From positions 1 through 31,897 of IMG/VR virus record IMGVR_UViG_2724679539_000006: 31,897 nt of DNA, one strand, 5' to 3'. Below, piece after piece: positions 1-5,922 of this stretch. The position numbers and the translations under genes are program-made. Within the stretch, counting starts at the first letter, position 1. Each line of letters begins with the position of its first letter. The stretch comes from a virus (lineage: Duplodnaviria; Heunggongvirae; Uroviricota; Caudoviricetes). Below the pieces are notes generated by a model, which saw only the letters and a program-made list of their open reading frames with translations, was not told the origin of the DNA and did not search any database.

Positions 1-192
1 TCAGGAGCATTTCTGATTAACGCCACCGTTAAGAATCCACCCTTCAACAGCTTCACGAAGGTATGATTTGGGGTGGGTTCTGACTGGCTTCGGAAATCCG
101 TGCCGTTTGGTATAGTTCCAGATTGTCTGACGTGATGAAACACCGAGCTTGTTCATCACTTCTTTCTCAGGAATCAGGCTGGTATCGGTCAT
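1..192 (-). CDS. xis: excisionase / AlpA-family DNA-binding protein (Xis-like)
   Basis: 63-aa ORF (LIPEKEVMNKLGVSSRQTIWNY...) resembling AlpA/Xis winged-helix proteins; GGAG about 8 nt upstream of ATG at 192; last gene of the leftward operon, integrase expected beyond the window edge. Confidence 0.6.
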   Translation of the reverse strand: MTDTSLIPEKEVMNKLGVSSRQTIWNYTKRHGFPKPVRTHPKSYLREAVEGWILNGGVNQKCS

Positions 193-204
193 CTTAATTC
201 TCCA

Positions 205-233
205 GGCAAAAATAAACCGCCATCAGGCGGCTT
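205..233 (-). terminator. putative intrinsic terminator just upstream of xis
   Basis: minus-strand RNA hairpin AAGCCGCC-UGAU-GGCGGUUU followed by AUUUUUGCC. Confidence 0.4.
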
Positions 234-477
234 GGTGTTCTTTCAGTTCTTCAATTCGAATATTGGTTACTTCTGCATGTGCTATCTGCGCCCACAGCAT
301 CCAGGGTCGTAGCAGTCGTTGATGTTCTCGGCTTCGATAACTCTGTTGAATGGTTCTCCATTCCATTCACCTGTGACTCGGAAGTGCATTTATCATCTCC
401 ATAAAACAAAACCCGCCGTAGCGAGTTCAGATAAAAGAAATCCCCGCGAGTGCGAGGATTGTTATGTAATATTTGGT

Positions 478-759
478 TTAATCATCTATATGTTTTGTAC
501 AGAGAGGGCAAGTATCGTTTCCACCGTACTCGTGATAATAATTTTGCACGGTATCAGTCATTTCTCGCACATTGCAGAATGGGGATTTGTCTTCATTAGA
601 CTTATAAACCTTCATGGAATATTTGTATGCCGACTCTATATCTATACCTTCATCTACATAAACACCTTCGTGATGTCTGCATGGAGACAAGACACCGGAT
701 CTGCACAACATTGATAACGCCCAATCTTTTTGCTCAGACTCTAACTCATTGATACTCAT
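478..759 (-). CDS. hypothetical Cys-rich small protein (93 aa)
   Basis: ATG at 759 preceded by AAGGAG at 8 nt spacing; two Cys pairs (C-x7-C and CPLC) suggest a zinc-ribbon-like fold; no family recognised. Confidence 0.5.
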   Translation of the reverse strand: MSINELESEQKDWALSMLCRSGVLSPCRHHEGVYVDEGIDIESAYKYSMKVYKSNEDKSPFCNVREMTDTVQNYYHEYGGNDTCPLCTKHIDD

Positions 760-961
760 TTATAAACTCCTTGCAATGTATGTCGTTTCAGCTAAACGGT
801 ATCAGCAATGTTTATGTAAAGAAACAGTAAGATAATACTCAACCCGATGTTTGAGTACGGTCATCATCTGACACTACAGACTCTGGCATCGCTGTGAAGA
901 CGACGCGAAATTCAGCATTTTCACAAGCGTTATCTTTTACAAACCCGTATTCCTGCTCATA

Positions 962-1654
962 TTACTCTCCTTTGATGCGAATGCCAGCAAGCCAGTTTCT
1001 TATGCCGATATATTCAGCGTTCCTGAAACCGCTTTTTACATATATAAATGGCAAGCGAAGATTGTGACCATTGACTGCCAGGTAATCTTTACAACCCTGT
1101 TCGGTGAAACAGCAGGTAACGAATTCATCAATATCTTTCACAGCAACGCGCCGCCATTTTTCTGGTGGCTCTCGAAAGTTTTCGTGAAGTAGTTCGAGAC
1201 GACGACTTTGGCGTTTATTGGCTTCATTGCCATCTTCATCAACCCAGACAATCCGGTCATAGTCATAATCAGCATCAACAACGATTTCGCGCTTTTGATA
1301 CACACAAAACATAGGGTCTGACGTTATTCGATTATCCTGTGTTCGAATATTTTCACCGATGATGCCAAACGAATCTGGTGCAGCTTTTTTCTCCAGCTCT
1401 GCAATGCGTTTGCTTTGAGCTTCCAGTTCATCAAGAAGCGCAAGCACGGTAGCCGGATTAGCCTTGGCAACAAAATCCCGGACTGGCTTACAATCAATCT
1501 CCGCAATGGGTTGATACGATGTGTAGCCATGCTGTCTTGTATAACTACCGTGACGAATAACGAAAAAATCACCATTTATTTTTTTAGCCTGCCACTTATC
1601 TTCACCGGCTTTCTCTGCCGCTTCACGCAGTGCCTGATAGTCAATCTTGTTCAT
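962..1654 (-). CDS. Ead/Ea22-like protein
   Basis: 230-aa ORF, N-terminus MNKIDYQALREAAEKA... and PATVLALLDELEAQ motif recalled from Ea22-like prophage proteins; ATG start. Confidence 0.55.
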   Translation of the reverse strand: MNKIDYQALREAAEKAGEDKWQAKKINGDFFVIRHGSYTRQHGYTSYQPIAEIDCKPVRDFVAKANPATVLALLDELEAQSKRIAELEKKAAPDSFGIIGENIRTQDNRITSDPMFCVYQKREIVVDADYDYDRIVWVDEDGNEANKRQSRRLELLHENFREPPEKWRRVAVKDIDEFVTCCFTEQGCKDYLAVNGHNLRLPFIYVKSGFRNAEYIGIRNWLAGIRIKGE

Positions 1655-1655
1655 G

Positions 1656-1955
1656 TCACATCACCCTGAAGCCGTTGCATTTACGTAAGAAATCGCAGAT
1701 ATAGCCCTTCATTTTTTCATGCCAATCTCGATCATTCCCATTGCACCACCCATCAGGTGGAGTCCAGTTTTCTATCAGAGCAGCCATTTTCTTTGCTTTC
1801 GCCGGAGTAGCTGTTGCGGTATCGCAGTAATGACGAGTGTCAACAAACTTATCCATGCCATCGATATCAAGTACGCAAAACCATGTGTGATTCGGAATTC
1901 CTACAGGTGGTATTTGTTGCCCACGTCGGCGTTTATCAATGAGATATACACTCAC
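1656..1955 (-). CDS. hypothetical protein (99 aa)
   Basis: ORF with GTG start overlapping the upstream stop (GTGA); same strand and tight packing with neighbours; no family recognised. Confidence 0.4.
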   Translation of the reverse strand: MSVYLIDKRRRGQQIPPVGIPNHTWFCVLDIDGMDKFVDTRHYCDTATATPAKAKKMAALIENWTPPDGWCNGNDRDWHEKMKGYICDFLRKCNGFRVM

Positions 1956-2401
1956 TGGTTACCTCCTTTGCGAAGCTCTGCGGCGAACTCGTTAAGTGAT
2001 ATGTAGCAATCTCCAAATGTTAACGAACCGCTCGACTGCATATGCTCCATAGCCATCTCCACGCCCTGCGCCCGTACTTCAGCCAGGAAAGCATCGGTGG
2101 CTGGGGTTTCAGTAACATCATCTTCCCATTCGCTAAACTCCTCACGACAAAAGTCATTAAATTCCTTCTCAGATTGCTTAAGCGAGGTATTTTCAGCAGC
2201 CATCTTCGCGCATTTAGCCTCAAGGTTATCAATCGTGATTCCAGCAGAACGACACTCCCGCAACGCCGTTTCTAGTTTTGATTCAAGTTCACCGAACTTA
2301 CGCACCAGATATTCAGCGTTTGTTTCGTTAACCTTTAAATCTCGGGGGATGCATTTACCTTTCAGAAAACCATCCATCTCAATTAGTGACATTTGTTTCA
2401 T
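1952..2401 (-). CDS. hypothetical acidic coiled-coil protein
   Basis: ORF 1952..2419 in track; ATG at 2401 forms an ATGA overlap with the stop of the upstream small ORF, so the start is taken at 2401 ([12 protein letters not shown]...). Confidence 0.5.
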
Positions 2402-2562
2402 TTCTTCCCACTCCGCCACATTGCATTCAGATATTTGTTGTCATTAACAGAGCCGAAACTATTTCTCTTAAGCAATTCCTCTCTCGATGGCATTGGCTTT
2501 ACGCGTTGGCGAATAATCATTTCTGCTGGAAGAATGCCGGGATTGTATGCAAGTCCTCTCAT
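2398..2562 (-). CDS. small hypothetical protein (54 aa, [15 protein letters not shown]...)
   Basis: not in the ORF track as a separate gene (part of ORF 2398..2715); ATG at 2562 preceded by GAGGAA at 6 nt; stop overlaps the downstream ATG (ATGA). Confidence 0.35.
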
Positions 2563-2572
2563 GGTAAATTCC

Positions 2573-2869
2573 TCAGTCATTACTGATAGCGCCATAACGT
2601 GATCGGTAATTACGCAGGCGCGGGTCGATATATTCAGGGAAGTGGGTATATGTGGCTTTGCGGAATGGTCGGATTGATGTCTGGTAAATTCGCTCGCGCT
2701 CTTCTTTCTCTGCAAGCCATATACAATGGCGAAATTCCTTTTCCTCTTTCGTTTCCTGCGGTAGAGACATTATCCGGTCGTAGTTTTTCCTGAATTTATC
2801 CAGCACCTCCGATACGGAATTGCCGGAACAGCGGCGCGGGTCATCCGCACCATACTGAGGCGCTGGCAT
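2573..2869 (-). CDS. hypothetical protein (99 aa), position of anti-RecBCD Abc genes in P22-like early operons
   Basis: internal ATG at 2869 with AGGA at 8 nt (track ORF 2573..2989 extends further 5'); directly downstream of erf-ssb; no sequence-level family assignment. Confidence 0.5.
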
Positions 2870-2891
2870 AATGGAATCCTTATTTGCTAAT

Positions 2892-3275
2892 TTAGAAGGG
2901 AATTGAATCGTCGTATTCAGGATGATTTTGATGATTGCTACTTTGTTGCTGTTGGCTGTTTCCTGAAGTTGCAAATCCAATCTTTGCATTCAGTAATTCA
3001 AGAGTGATTGATTGACCATTTTGCCCCTGATAAACATCAACCCTGATGTTTTCTCCGGTAATTTCCACAATGCCACCTTCAACCAGAACGCTACGATAGT
3101 AATCCGCTTGCGCTCCCGGCTTGGCAAATACAACGGCGCTGTAGTTTGTCCATTCTTTCTTTTTTGTCTGGCGATCGTAATACTGAACGCCAGCACGGAT
3201 GTTGAATCCGATATTTTCCCCGGCCTGAAACTCTCTTGCGGGTTTGTTTAGTCTTACAGTAATCGAATGTGCCAT
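2892..3275 (-). CDS. ssb: single-stranded DNA-binding protein (SSB family)
   Basis: OB-fold-like sequence ending in the SSB acidic tail motif DDSIPF; ATG at 3275 overlaps the erf stop (TAATG), implying translational coupling. Confidence 0.7.
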   Translation of the reverse strand: MAHSITVRLNKPAREFQAGENIGFNIRAGVQYYDRQTKKKEWTNYSAVVFAKPGAQADYYRSVLVEGGIVEITGENIRVDVYQGQNGQSITLELLNAKIGFATSGNSQQQQSSNHQNHPEYDDSIPF

Positions 3276-3880
3276 TAAGCAGCCGCTCCTTCTAATTCGT
3301 CTCGTCTGATGTTGTAAACGTCCTGCGCTTTGTGCTGCTCCGGTGTGCCTTCGAGCATCTTCCACGCTTTGGCGAACGCCTGTTTAAGCTCTTCTACGGT
3401 GTTTTTCTGCATTGCTGCGTCAGTGAATGCTTTTAGAACCTGTTCAGGTGTAGGTGATGGTTTTGATTGCTTTGCTGCTGCGTTCTGCTGATGTTTATGC
3501 TCGTCTGTATCTGCATCTTTCGCATCATCAATGCCGAACAAACCATTGAGGCAATACTTGCGTGCATAAGAGCTTGTAGCTCCTGTAACTTGTGCAGAAT
3601 CCATTCCTTTCTTGCTTTCTTCCTCTCGTGCAAGAGCGGTTGCCGTATGACTGTTTTCGCCATCGGTAATAGTTGCCGTGGCTTTCACGTAATACCGATC
3701 ACCAATCAACACAACTTCATCGCTGATTGATAAAAACAGGCCATTCAGTAACGGCTTAACGCCTTCAAGAATGTCTTCGCAGCTTCTGTATTTATATTTA
3801 CCGAATGAGTTGTACTGATTCTTTGGCGCGTTCAGATTCTCCTGAATAGCTGCCAGTCTTGCGTAAAATTCTTTGCTCAT
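3275..3880 (-). CDS. erf: Erf single-strand annealing recombinase
   Basis: MSKEFYARLAAIQENLNAPKNQYNSFGKYKYRSCEDILEG... matches P22 Erf as recalled; ATG start at 3880 (track start is an upstream TTG). Confidence 0.8.
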   Translation of the reverse strand: MSKEFYARLAAIQENLNAPKNQYNSFGKYKYRSCEDILEGVKPLLNGLFLSISDEVVLIGDRYYVKATATITDGENSHTATALAREEESKKGMDSAQVTGATSSYARKYCLNGLFGIDDAKDADTDEHKHQQNAAAKQSKPSPTPEQVLKAFTDAAMQKNTVEELKQAFAKAWKMLEGTPEQHKAQDVYNIRRDELEGAAA

Positions 3881-3969
3881 ATGTTTGTTCTCAGAATGGA
3901 CATGGCCCAAGGAAATAACGCTGATTTAATACTTCAGTCTTTGCCGCATTTAAAAATACGCGAACACCT

Positions 3970-4140
3970 TCACGATCTCCCTTCTGGCGATACATTAACG
4001 CCTGCTGCGTGTACATGCGTCTCTGTAACTTGCTCTCCTTCACTGTGGTTGCAAGTGACATGAATATCTCCTTCGTTACCGATTAATTCTTTCATCTGAC
4101 GAATGAATTCTTCGTCTGACCAGTTATCTGTAAAACTCAT
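3970..4140 (-). CDS. hypothetical small protein (56 aa) at the kil position
   Basis: ATG at 4140 forms an ATGA overlap with the cIII stop; identity as Kil not verifiable from sequence. Confidence 0.4.
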   Translation of the reverse strand: MSFTDNWSDEEFIRQMKELIGNEGDIHVTCNHSEGEQVTETHVHAAGVNVSPEGRS

Positions 4141-4307
4141 GGGCGGCCTTGTTGTTTCAAAATATCCCAAAGCTTTTCGAGCAAACTTTTCATTCTTGGT
4201 TGTTTAAAGTCCGCTCCGGTTAAAATATTTTTTCGTGAATGCTGTACCGATAAAATCGGGTTGAAAGGGCGAACCGATGCCGCCCCTGCAATAGCGAACT
4301 GTTGCAT
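4137..4307 (-). CDS. cIII: CIII regulator (FtsH inhibitor)
   Basis: MQQFAIAGAAS...KSLLEKLWDILKQQGRP resembles lambda CIII (MQYAIAG...SLLERI...LIDILNQPG); AAGGAG RBS before ATG at 4307. Confidence 0.7.
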   Translation of the reverse strand: MQQFAIAGAASVRPFNPILSVQHSRKNILTGADFKQPRMKSLLEKLWDILKQQGRP

Positions 4308-5479: not shown

Positions 5480-5812
5480 TCAATAGTAATAAGCTGGAAT
5501 TGATTTTCCGCGTTGCTTCTGGCGGCCTGAGCAGGTCACACCCATTTCACTGCGTGGCTTGCTGTACCATGTGCGCTGATTCTTGCGCTCAATACGTTGC
5601 AGGTTGCTTTCAATCTGTTCGTGGTATTCAGCCAGCACTGTAAGGTCTATTGGATTCAGTGCGCTTTCTACTCGTGATTTCGGTTTGCGATTCAGCGAGA
5701 GAATAGGGCGGTTAACTGGTTTTGCGCTTACCCCAACCAACAGGGGATTTGCTGCTTTCCATTGAGCCTGTTTCTCTGCGCGACGTTCGCGGCGGCGTGC
5801 TTGTGCATCCAT
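5480..5812 (-). CDS. N: N transcription antiterminator
   Basis: MDAQARRRERRAEKQAQWKAANPLLVGVSAKPVNRPILSLNRKPKSRVESALNPIDLTVLAEY... matches lambda N, including the Arg-rich motif; AGGAG RBS before ATG at 5812. Confidence 0.85.
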   Translation of the reverse strand: MDAQARRRERRAEKQAQWKAANPLLVGVSAKPVNRPILSLNRKPKSRVESALNPIDLTVLAEYHEQIESNLQRIERKNQRTWYSKPRSEMGVTCSGRQKQRGKSIPAYYY

Positions 5813-5922
5813 CTGGATTCTCCTGTCAGTTAGCTTTGAGTAACGCGCCGTGATGCTTATCTCCACGGTTGCTGTCTTGCAGCTGCATTTCGCGCTACTC
5901 AAAGCCTTCTGCTTTGAATGCT

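Follow-up and report, generated by a model that had tools for sequence, protein, structure and literature searches.

Phage P22 Abc2 binds RecC, blocks the response of RecBCD to Chi and redirects RecBCD to phage Erf recombination; a cryo-EM structure exists for Abc2 bound to RecBCD (PDB 8B1T/8B1U), and in the RecBCD–Abc2–PpiB structure Pro68 of P22 Abc2 enters the PpiB active site (PMC9836394). Deletion of ea22 in lambda and Phi24B leads to faster induction and more progeny, indicating that Ea22 is pro-lysogenic (PMC7093339, PMC8614690). Ea8.5 has a homeodomain/zinc-finger fold, with NMR structures available for homologues (2M7A, 2M7B), and acts as a repressor of paQ and pI; yeast two-hybrid interactions with Ren, Q and MinE also appear in the Ea22/Ea8.5 literature (PMC7093339, PMC8614690). 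Published work on the Ea22 and Ea8.5 phenotypes connects these proteins to the lysis–lysogeny decision, not to defence (PMC7093339, PMC10834534, PMC8614690). HK446 gp27, reported in July 2026 as Oad2 (OLD anti-defence 2), is a direct inhibitor of the abortive nuclease P2 OLD, binding the OLD tetramer and preventing its activation; gp33 was reported as the trigger of P2 OLD (bioRxiv 10.64898/2026.07.10.737580). The function of Oad2 is known from this single preprint, in which rescue of OLD toxicity in recB-deficient cells was described for HK446 gp27 only, HK75 remained OLD-sensitive, for which the authors invoke highly specific interfaces, and Oad2 was related to EaE and Ea22 fusions (bioRxiv 10.64898/2026.07.10.737580).

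The window analysed here is a stretch of 31,897 nucleotides, positions 1 to 31,897 of IMG/VR virus record IMGVR_UViG_2724679539_000006. Six tightly packed genes had been predicted within 478–2869, as an uncharacterised block and a likely site of an undescribed counter-defence or host-modulation function. The features of this region and its flanks are as follows.

233–214, 428–409 and 460–439, minus strand: three terminator-like hairpins (terminator scan)
282–389, minus strand: orf35, truncated remnant of lambda orf55 (sequence match)
478–759, minus strand: ea8.5, homeodomain/zinc-finger hybrid protein, 93 aa (PF20735, PDB 2M7A)
760–961, minus strand: non-coding spacer, 202 nt, from the ea22-like gene to ea8.5, common to lambda
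962–1654, minus strand: Ea22-like gene, 230 aa (Ead/Ea22 family, PF13935)
962–1381, minus strand: Ea22-like C-terminal domain, residues 92–230, P27/HK022 type, with K/RGE tail
1382–1654, minus strand: Ea22-like N-terminal Ead/Ea22 head and short coiled-coil stalk (predicted), residues 1–91 (PF13935)
1656–1955, minus strand: DUF7739 protein, 99 aa, GTG start, equivalent of HK75 gp27 ('Sf6 gene 22'-like; PF24881, phrog_1239)
1952–2401, minus strand: p149, acidic mosaic protein, 149 aa, pI 4.6, predicted coiled coil (phrog_614)
2398–2562, minus strand: DUF2737, small basic protein, 54 aa, pI 10.7 (PF10930, phrog_1117)
2573–2869, minus strand: abc2, anti-RecBCD protein 2, 98 aa (PF11043, phrog_656, PDB 8B1T/8B1U)
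2892–3275, minus strand: SSB-like gene, equivalent of HK446 gp31 (phrog_155/phrog_44, with erf)
3275–3880, minus strand: erf (PF04404, E = 2.4e-44; phrog_155/phrog_44, with the SSB-like gene)
3970–4140, minus strand: homologue of HK446/HK75 gp33, 56 aa (sequence identity)

The six minus-strand reading frames were confirmed at the predicted coordinates within 478–2869, and all are real genes: each has a Pfam and/or PHROG family match at E ≤ 1e-18 and recurs across hundreds of phages and prophages. Every one is 97–100% identical to a gene in named phages, sequenced E. coli prophages or IMG/VR contigs, the DUF2737, p149 and DUF7739 genes being 97–100% identical to genes of HK446, HK75 and the IMG/VR locus L077. 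Structures have been solved for two of the six products, Abc2 and Ea8.5, or for close homologues of them. By sequence, Abc2, Ea8.5, the Ea22-type protein, the Oad2-family member and the two small DUF proteins all belong to catalogued families. The description of the block as uncharacterised had to be abandoned, because Abc2 has been visualized by cryo-EM, Ea8.5 is identical to that of lambda, the Ea22 family has deletion phenotypes and the other three proteins fall in named families; the statement that no family could be assigned beyond Ea22-like is likewise superseded by Pfam or PHROG families for all six. The original prediction was right that this PL-distal site carries host-takeover or counter-defence genes, as Abc2 (anti-RecBCD) and the Oad2 homologue illustrate, but Abc2, Ea8.5, the Ea22 family and the Oad2 family have already been described, which removes the case for a likely site of undescribed function. 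Homology to characterised proteins covers about half of the six and does not extend to DUF2737, DUF7739 and the Ea22 C-terminal domain. We conclude that the six genes are in all probability known lambdoid accessory genes in an ordinary region, and constitute no new counter-defence system.

The genes had been called mostly translationally coupled. The abc2 and DUF2737 genes are separated by 10 nt, the DUF2737 and p149 genes overlap by 4 nt (ATGA, 2398–2401), as do p149 and DUF7739 (GTGA), a single nucleotide separates DUF7739 from the Ea22-like gene, and 202 nt separate the latter from ea8.5. At three of the five junctions the genes are thus coupled or abut, and packing is uneven along the block. 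A consensus scan of positions 1–4300 gave 2 promoter-like sites, compared with 8.6 expected from shuffled sequence. Internal promoters were rejected, since consensus matches are rarer than in shuffled sequence. The reading frame at 5480–5902 is one that we take, from its N arginine-rich motif, to be a lambda-type N. Because promoter-like sites are scarce and this frame is present, we believe that the block, as the best explanation of the whole, is very probably the distal part of an early-left (pL) operon under N antitermination in a P22-like, lambdoid mosaic coliphage. Searches of the block and its 202-nt spacer found no non-coding RNA in Rfam and no tRNAs, and an NCBIfam scan of all proteins gave nothing useful.

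The abc2 product was assigned to phrog_656 ('abc2 anti-RecBCD') and matches PF11043 at E = 1.1e-60 (profile positions 1–97 of 97). It is 92% identical to P22 Abc2 over the full 98 aa, 96% identical to HK446 gp30 and 99% identical to CUS-3 HkaJ, and it matches PDB 8B1T/8B1U over its full length (E = 1e-55). Pro68 is present, residues 66–69 being I-R-P-F. The reading frame at 2573–2869 has 99 codons including the stop; the predicted sizes of 93, 230, 99, 149 and 54 aa held for the first five proteins, while the last, given as 99 aa, had included the stop and is 98 aa. The identity to P22 Abc2 suggests that the window protein is a RecBCD modulator that binds RecC and alters the response to Chi. 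It would function with the upstream erf and SSB-like genes, redirecting RecBCD to Erf recombination. These three genes together form a Rec module (2573–3880), in which erf and the SSB-like gene overlap at TAATG; Erf shares 99–100% protein identity with its counterparts in the HUE1 prophage, HK022 and CUS-3, and the SSB-like protein shares 99% with HK446 gp31. The window gp33 differs from HK446 gp33 at two of 56 aa, and in a survey of 73 related abc2 loci, on which the assortment data below are based, a gp33 gene was found in 67.

The DUF2737 gene, with GAGGA 8 nt upstream of its start, encodes a protein that matches PF10930 at E = 2.4e-29 (profile positions 1–52 of 53) and is 100% identical to HK446 gp28 and HK75 gp29 and 74% identical to P22 orf56; HK97 gp38 is a further equivalent. 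It lies directly after abc2 in 72 of the 73 loci, and full-length copies occur in 223 phage records, as against 224 for abc2, although the DUF2737 core is also found in virulent siphoviruses without abc2. DUF2737 is thus inherited nearly always with abc2. The co-occurrence analysis that had been proposed for the block revealed linkage for this pair, and independent assortment of the other genes. Such tight linkage could mean joint action, which would argue against independent cassettes for that pair. A literature search found no paper mentioning DUF2737 or DUF7739; a role of DUF2737, which is inherited nearly one-to-one with abc2, in RecBCD or DNA-end handling would be cheap to test.

The p149 protein, of 149 aa from its ATG (155 aa from an upstream GTG), matches phrog_614 at E = 2e-61. 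It is 74% identical to CUS-3/HK620 HkaH and 71% identical to HK75 gp28, and shares 65% identity with P22 EaE over 57 aa; BLASTP against HK446 gp27 (Oad2) gave 56% identity end to end (E = 5e-57). The identity of the Oad2 gene was checked by reproducing the 54% identity between HK446 gp27 and HK75 gp28 given in the preprint. The first 60 residues of p149 are identical to those of Oad2, and the motifs EAKCAxLAAEN, [15 protein letters not shown] and LRKGGNQ are common to p149 and the Oad2 family. The gene overlaps the DUF2737 gene at ATGA and is distal to abc2, an order that also holds in HK446, in HK75 and in 49 of the 73 abc2 loci. HK022 gp35 consists of the p149 N-terminal module fused to the Ea22 C-terminal domain found in the window. 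Oad1 was rejected as a relative, being an unrelated vibriophage protein.

Two variable cassettes of p149, residues ∼75–98 and ∼113–140, fail to align with those of Oad2, and the middle cassette is of the type found in HK75 gp28. An Oad2-family gene is present in 49 of the 73 abc2 loci, and the family is hypervariable, with 38 distinct proteins at 50 loci that share 98–100% identity in abc2; this hypervariability is limited to two segments, the N-terminal module being invariant and the joints conserved. The p149 allele is found at full length in 42 of 5426 E. coli genomes and in part in 1095. It could be argued that p149 is a working P2-type OLD inhibitor, equivalent to HK446 Oad2, which shields the phage from OLD provoked by its own gp33 and Abc2: the end-to-end identity, the shared N-terminal residues, the last two of the motifs above and the matching genomic slot fit such a role, and the window encodes the OLD trigger gp33 as well, but neither variable cassette matches its Oad2 counterpart, and the HK75 homologue, with which p149 shares 71% identity and the middle cassette, fails to protect HK75. 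We regard this equivalence as unlikely. Anti-OLD activity of the p149 allele is doubtful because it has neither variable cassette in common with active Oad2 and because HK75 is OLD-sensitive; its specificity probably differs from that of Oad2. We favour a reading in which p149 would bind and inhibit a sensor of the OLD type, or a similar one, that is set off when Abc2 and gp33 disturb RecBCD. Because the window combines two RecBCD manipulators, Abc2 and gp33, with an Oad2-family allele other than Oad2 itself, it offers a natural setting in which to ask how the specificity of anti-OLD-type inhibitors depends on the two hypervariable cassettes.

The designation of the 230-aa protein as Ea22-like was upheld by a PF13935 match to its head (E = 9.6e-19, residues 3–90). 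The protein ends in …IRIKGE, which fits the K/RGE ending rule of the Ea22 family (PMC7093339). By analogy with the family it would have a tripartite build of head, coiled coil and C-terminal domain. Different homologues combine many alternative heads with stalks of varying length, 223–345 aa in total, on a common C-terminal domain that is 91–100% identical in HK022 gp35 and 99–100% identical in Ea22 of the Stx phage P27. This domain, which differs in type from the lambda Ea22 domain whose structure was determined by NMR, occurs in 1473 clusters, has no Pfam family and has conserved polar motifs (TQDNRxT, CFTEQGC, GHNL, RNxE); it is widespread and confidently modelled, and comparison with solved folds gave zero matches. 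PDB sequence searches with the Ea22-like protein, p149 and DUF7739 returned chance coiled-coil matches only. [quoted passage not shown]

Some of the reading frames, the short-stalk Ea22-like gene among them, might be decaying and functionless remnants. PGAP splits a 99%-identical Ea22-like copy in E. coli HUE1 into two partial pseudogenes, and nearby orf35 is lambda orf55 in truncated form. Nevertheless, the 230-aa frame is intact in both the window and HUE1, this form heads a 114-member cluster within a natural length range of 223–345 aa, and all six frames retain a start codon, a ribosome-binding site and the residues conserved across their families. Decay is accordingly a very improbable explanation.

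Ea8.5 of the window is 100% identical to lambda Ea8.5 (PF20735, E = 1.1e-48) and matches PDB 2M7A at E = 2.5e-18. It had been described as having two Cys pairs; it contains five Cys, and the metal ligands indicated by the structural homologues are C27, H30, C84 and C87, all four aligning with 2M7A and the first three with 2M7B, where the alignment ends at residue 84. The gene is found in 5 of the 73 abc2 loci. The spacer at 760–961, within a stretch (203–988) that is 96.7% identical to lambda DNA, had zero Rfam matches and an RNA fold z-score of 0.09. Between ea8.5 and xis (214–460) lie the three hairpins and the orf55 remnant, orf35, which matches the first 28 aa of lambdap35 of lambda at 100%. 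The Ea22-like and Ea8.5 proteins would be the 'exo-xis' proteins of lambda and Stx phages.

The published phenotypes of these two families suggest a further alternative, that the genes other than abc2 (p149, Ea22-like, Ea8.5 and perhaps DUF2737 and DUF7739) modulate lysis–lysogeny or host physiology and are not defence inhibitors. Host physiology here means transcription and cell division. The ea22 deletion phenotypes, the repression of paQ and pI by a homeodomain/zinc-finger protein and the yeast two-hybrid links to Ren, Q and MinE (PMC7093339, PMC8614690) are consistent with such a role, as is a PADLOC-DB scan of eight proteins, including all those of the block, which gave zero defence-system matches at E ≤ 0.01. 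However, the phenotypes are mild, with no direct targets shown, and the EaE/Ea22-fusion family has a single activity defined by biochemistry, which is to inhibit a defence nuclease; moreover, hypervariability in the p149 family is localised, as would be expected from an arms race with a host protein and not from control of conserved phage circuitry. We consider a purely regulatory role somewhat unlikely, although less so than equivalence of p149 to Oad2.

The DUF7739 gene, whose GTG start lies 6 nt after AGGAGG, encodes a protein that is 97% identical to HK75 gp27 and matches PF24881 at E = 8.6e-19 (profile positions 3–92 of 98). Only 45 clusters were found among 5.8 billion proteins, the named ones being from Enterobacterales, and the gene is present in 430 of 5426 E. 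coli genomes and in 20 of the 73 abc2 loci; DUF7739 is a narrow-range protein. An alignment of 21 homologues has 19 invariant columns. The AF2 model (pLDDT 85.8) had zero corroborated matches among solved folds. A zinc protein was considered and rejected, since of its five Cys C93 alone is invariant.

At the DNA level the region is a patchwork, with 203–988 of lambda type, 954–1410 of HK022, 1623–2869 of HK75 and 2559–4140 of HK446, the last with 97.6% identity. In the 73 abc2 loci the genes reassort independently and the abc2–DUF2737 pair alone is fixed. Independent reassortment, together with the hypervariability of the Oad2 family, indicates that the block is a mosaic array of independent cassettes and not one system. 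A single co-functional, undescribed counter-defence or host-takeover system might be suspected from genes that are tightly packed, partly translationally coupled on one transcript and adjacent to anti-RecBCD and recombination genes. Such a system is highly improbable, given independent assortment in relatives, DNA derived from at least four phage lineages and membership of every gene in a separately catalogued family; furthermore, with positions 1–4200 as query, only one of 5426 E. coli genomes covers at least 80% (87% coverage), although 3068 carry parts. We therefore retain the reading of the block as what would be a string of independently exchangeable accessory cassettes from catalogued families, in which cassettes may be swapped at joints formed by short conserved termini of the genes (…LRKGGNQ*, …KGE*), where start and stop codons overlap.

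A more speculative proposal is that EaE/Oad2 and Ead/Ea22 form a combinatorial 'inhibitor scaffold', with the Ea22 C-terminal domain, DUF2737 and DUF7739 as undescribed anti-defence modules. We think this unlikely; if true, swappable heads and tails, each able to neutralise a different immune sensor of the host, would be presented on a coiled-coil stalk with invariant joints. The discovery value of the region is little, and its worth lies in sharper testable questions.

The locus can be compared with described systems gene by gene. As in P22, where orf56 comes after abc2, abc2 lies between erf and the DUF2737 gene, directly downstream of the former; in P22, however, abc1 sits between erf and abc2, where the window has an SSB-like gene of the HK446 gp31 type. 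p149 resembles Oad2 in its slot, its ATGA coupling to DUF2737, its N-terminal module and its common motifs, but differs in both hypervariable cassettes, and its nearest tested relative (HK75) is unprotected against P2 OLD. The Ea22-like protein shares with P27 and HK022 an architecture of head, coiled coil and C-terminal domain with K/RGE end, the domain being 99–100% identical to those of both phages, whereas its head is unlike either and its stalk is among the shortest (230 as against 223–345 aa); the C-terminal domain of lambda Ea22, of known NMR structure, is unrelated. Ea8.5 shows no difference from the lambda protein and has the same neighbours, namely the ea22 3′ end, the 202-nt spacer and the orf55 remnant, although downstream orf55 is truncated in the window and the xis gene is of AlpA type, unlike that of lambda. 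Like the lambda exo-xis region (orf60a, orf63, orf61, orf73, ea22, ea8.5), the block lies in the pL operon between recombination genes and xis, has non-essential accessory content and includes ea22-type and ea8.5 genes. In place of orf60a, orf63, orf61 and orf73 it carries DUF2737, an Oad2-family gene and DUF7739, a content typical of Rec modules of the erf/abc2 type (P22, HK97, HK75).

Profile searches against Pfam and PHROG placed all six minus-strand genes between positions 478 and 2869 in families. The six-gene observation itself was confirmed, and the coordinates and sizes originally predicted were correct apart from the last protein, which is of 98 rather than 99 aa. The accompanying view that no family beyond Ea22-like could be assigned was not upheld.

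Genes of the block and its flanks, upstream to downstream
3275-3880 (-): erf, 201 aa, most upstream of the series
2892-3275 (-): SSB-like gene, 127 aa, between erf and abc2
2573-2869 (-): abc2, 98 aa, first gene of the block
2398-2562 (-): DUF2737 gene, 54 aa
1952-2401 (-): p149, 149 aa, Oad2-family gene
1656-1955 (-): DUF7739 gene, 99 aa, GTG start
962-1654 (-): Ea22-like gene, 230 aa
478-759 (-): ea8.5, 93 aa, last gene of the block
282-389 (-): orf35, remnant ORF, 35 aa, after the block
1-192 (-): AlpA-type xis, 63 aa, after the block, beyond orf35

The product of 2573-2869 is Abc2 (PF11043, E=1e-60; phrog_656, 'abc2 anti-RecBCD'). It shares 92% identity with P22 Abc2, matches the RecBCD-Abc2 cryo-EM entry 8B1T in a PDB sequence search (E=1e-55) and retains Pro68, the proline engaged by PpiB (PMC9836394). 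The 478-759 product is 100% identical to lambda Ea8.5; as C27, H30, C84 and C87 are conserved in its alignment to the NMR homologues 2M7A and 2M7B, its metal site is C-H-C-C rather than two Cys pairs. The Ea22-like protein joins a PF13935 Ead/Ea22 N-terminal domain (residues 3-90) to a phrog_3205 C-terminal domain; published genetics shows that Ea22 and Ea8.5 sway the choice between lysis and lysogeny (PMC7093339, PMC10834534, PMC8614690). Profile searches assigned 1656-1955 to DUF7739, 2398-2562 to DUF2737 and p149 to phrog_614, while NCBIfam and PADLOC scans of the block proteins gave no further information. Outside the block, the 127-aa SSB-like protein is 99% identical to HK446 gp31; its SSB function is tentative, since phrog_44 is the sole assignment, there is no Pfam match and its TIGR00621 score is sub-threshold (16 bits against a 54-bit cutoff).

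Spacers at the block's junctions are, upstream to downstream, +10, -4 (ATGA), -4 (GTGA), +1 and +202 nt, so that tight packing, mostly with coupling, holds for the first five genes but not for ea8.5. The 202-nt spacer (760-961, -) is conserved with lambda; it gave no Rfam match, its RNA structure is unremarkable (z=0.09) and its sole ORF is of 7 codons. Positions 1-4300 contain only two promoter-like sites where shuffled sequence would give 8.6, and upstream, at 5480-5902, there is what we take to be an N ORF of lambda type. Both features fit the lambdoid paradigm, in which a single N-antiterminated pL transcript would cover the block. The coding strand of the ea8.5-xis interval carries three serial terminator-like hairpins with T-runs (439-460, 409-428 and 214-233, -), the stem of the last (GCCGCC…GGCGG) scoring on the plus strand too; the N-modified transcript presumably reads through all three. 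In this interval orf35 is identical to lambda orf55 (lambdap35, 55 aa) over its first 28 residues and then diverges; it is a truncated remnant of that gene.

Nucleotide comparison revealed the region to be a patchwork of several phages, set in a window that is otherwise a P22-like podovirus near APC_JM3.2 and IME10.

Best DNA matches across the region
203-988: lambda, 96.7%; orf55 remnant, ea8.5, 202-nt spacer, last codons of ea22
954-1410: HK022, 97.6%; Ea22 C-terminal domain
1623-2869: HK75, 90%; DUF7739 to abc2
2559-4140: HK446, 97.6%; abc2 to gp33

Pieces of 1-4200 were matched in 503 phage records. Of 5426 complete E. coli genomes, 3068 carry pieces too, but HUE1 (87%) alone has most of the stretch in the window's arrangement. 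Of the 73 loci that extend 1.5 kb or more past the downstream end of abc2, 72 had DUF2737 after it: with a 10-nt gap in 40, with an HK446 gp29-like insert in 20 and truncated in 12. An Oad2-family gene began at the DUF2737 stop in 49 of the 73, and gp33 was present at 67; DUF7739 (20), any Ea22 head (25), ea8.5 (5) and the window's Ea22 C-terminal domain (2) were less frequent. Among the collected phage records, 223 have full-length DUF2737 and 224 have abc2. From these counts, the block is an array of independently assorting cassettes, with abc2-DUF2737 the sole fixed pair.

The DUF2737 protein (54 aa) has a pI of 10.7. Its core (residues 23-49) recurs at ~54-70% identity in ~470 records, of ~41-44 kb, of virulent Salmonella and E. 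coli phages that lack abc2 (e.g. f18SE, NC_028698; Kagunavirus), which argues that its role is not tied to Abc2. DUF7739 is a conserved unit, nearly always full-length at ≥90% identity in 430 E. coli genomes. It directly follows DUF2737 at two related loci (L011 and L016), and three database proteins of 153-154 aa (P0124, P0126, P0127) carry both Pfam domains; loss of the Oad2-family gene may occasionally yield in-frame fusions or gene-call mergers.

The Ea22 C-terminal domain (residues 92-230) is 99-100% identical to those of HK022 gp35 and Ea22 of Stx-phage P27, and is unrelated to the solved C-terminal domain of lambda Ea22 (PDB sequence search). Stx phages make up most of the 90 phage records that contain it, and as a conserved unit, nearly always full-length at ≥90% identity, it is present in 473 E. 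coli genomes. Although no Pfam model covers it, as a lone query it retrieved 1473 clusters (50% identity level). The proteins that contain it have 141-640 aa; in them it lies N-terminally, centrally or C-terminally, fused to further 'ea' modules of phages (DUF551, DUF550, Lar, Ead_Ea22). In HUE1 (NZ_AP023427.1; L001 2443-3135) PGAP splits a 99%-identical, uninterrupted 230-aa ORF into two partial pseudogenes; this looks like an annotation artefact, apparently due to a coiled-coil stalk that falls short of the reference model in length.

Gene ends are kept among otherwise unrelated alleles: …QLRKGGNQ* in Oad2/EaE (1952-1975, -), which runs over the ribosome-binding site and the start codon of the gene that follows, and …KGE* in Ea22 (962-988, -). 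The pro-lysogeny study, which included P27 Ea22, noted a common K/RGE end (PMC7093339). This 'motif of unknown significance' falls at a recombination joint, as identity to lambda DNA continues for 27 nt into the unrelated C-terminal domain. The exchange joints are such conserved ends of genes, together with the overlaps between stop and start codons.

In a July 2026 preprint, HK446 gp27, named Oad2, rescued recB-deficient cells from P2 OLD toxicity and abolished OLD defence, binding OLD and blocking tetramer activation; gp33 of HK75 and HK446 triggers OLD and was proposed as a new RecBCD manipulator, and a 54%-identical HK75 homologue did not protect HK75 (bioRxiv 10.64898/2026.07.10.737580). 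HK446 gp27 and HK75 gp28 are exactly 54% identical, identifying them as the genes of the preprint. As p149 does in the window, gp27 lies directly downstream of the DUF2737 gene. End to end, p149 is 56% identical to Oad2; it shares 71% with HK75 gp28, 74% with CUS-3 HkaH and 65% over 57 aa with P22 EaE. A gp33 homologue (3970-4140, -; 56 aa) differs from HK446 gp33 by two residues.

The Oad2 slot of 80 IMG/VR loci with abc2 98-100% identical yielded 50 ORFs (38 distinct proteins). A 36-residue N-terminal module, EAKCAxLAAEN, a 15-residue stretch and the tail FAxQLRKGGNQ are conserved; two intervening segments exist in many unrelated versions. The middle cassette of p149 is that of HK75 gp28, its C-terminal cassette is common to few loci (e.g. 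L077, 100%), and complete E. coli genomes hold pieces of the gene in 1095 cases and the full allele in only 42. Kinship of Oad2 with EaE, and occasional fusions to HNH or EaD/Ea22, are described in the preprint. HK022 gp35 combines the p149 N-terminal module, a coiled coil and the window's Ea22 C-terminal domain, indicating that EaE/Oad2 and Ead/Ea22 proteins exchange parts.

The kind of function expected at this PL-distal position was rightly foreseen, with Abc2 (anti-RecBCD) and the Oad2 homologue p149 as its likely instances, but the genes can be assigned and are unlikely to hide an undescribed system. By sequence and family the block is already known. Of lasting interest are p149 as an Oad2-family allele, the linkage of abc2 with DUF2737, and the Ea22 C-terminal domain, which matched none of the solved folds. 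In P22, Abc2 docks on RecC close to the Chi-recognition domains and puts RecBCD at the service of Erf recombination (PMC9836394); by identity, the window's Abc2 should do the same. Oad2 acts by binding OLD, a sensor set off by compromised RecBCD, and keeping it silent (bioRxiv 10.64898/2026.07.10.737580). Since its cassettes differ from those of Oad2, p149 probably has a target other than P2 OLD, which itself is an unlikely candidate. We suggest that p149 is a binding inhibitor of Oad2's general kind, present because the phage's own Abc2 and gp33 would provoke OLD-like sensors.
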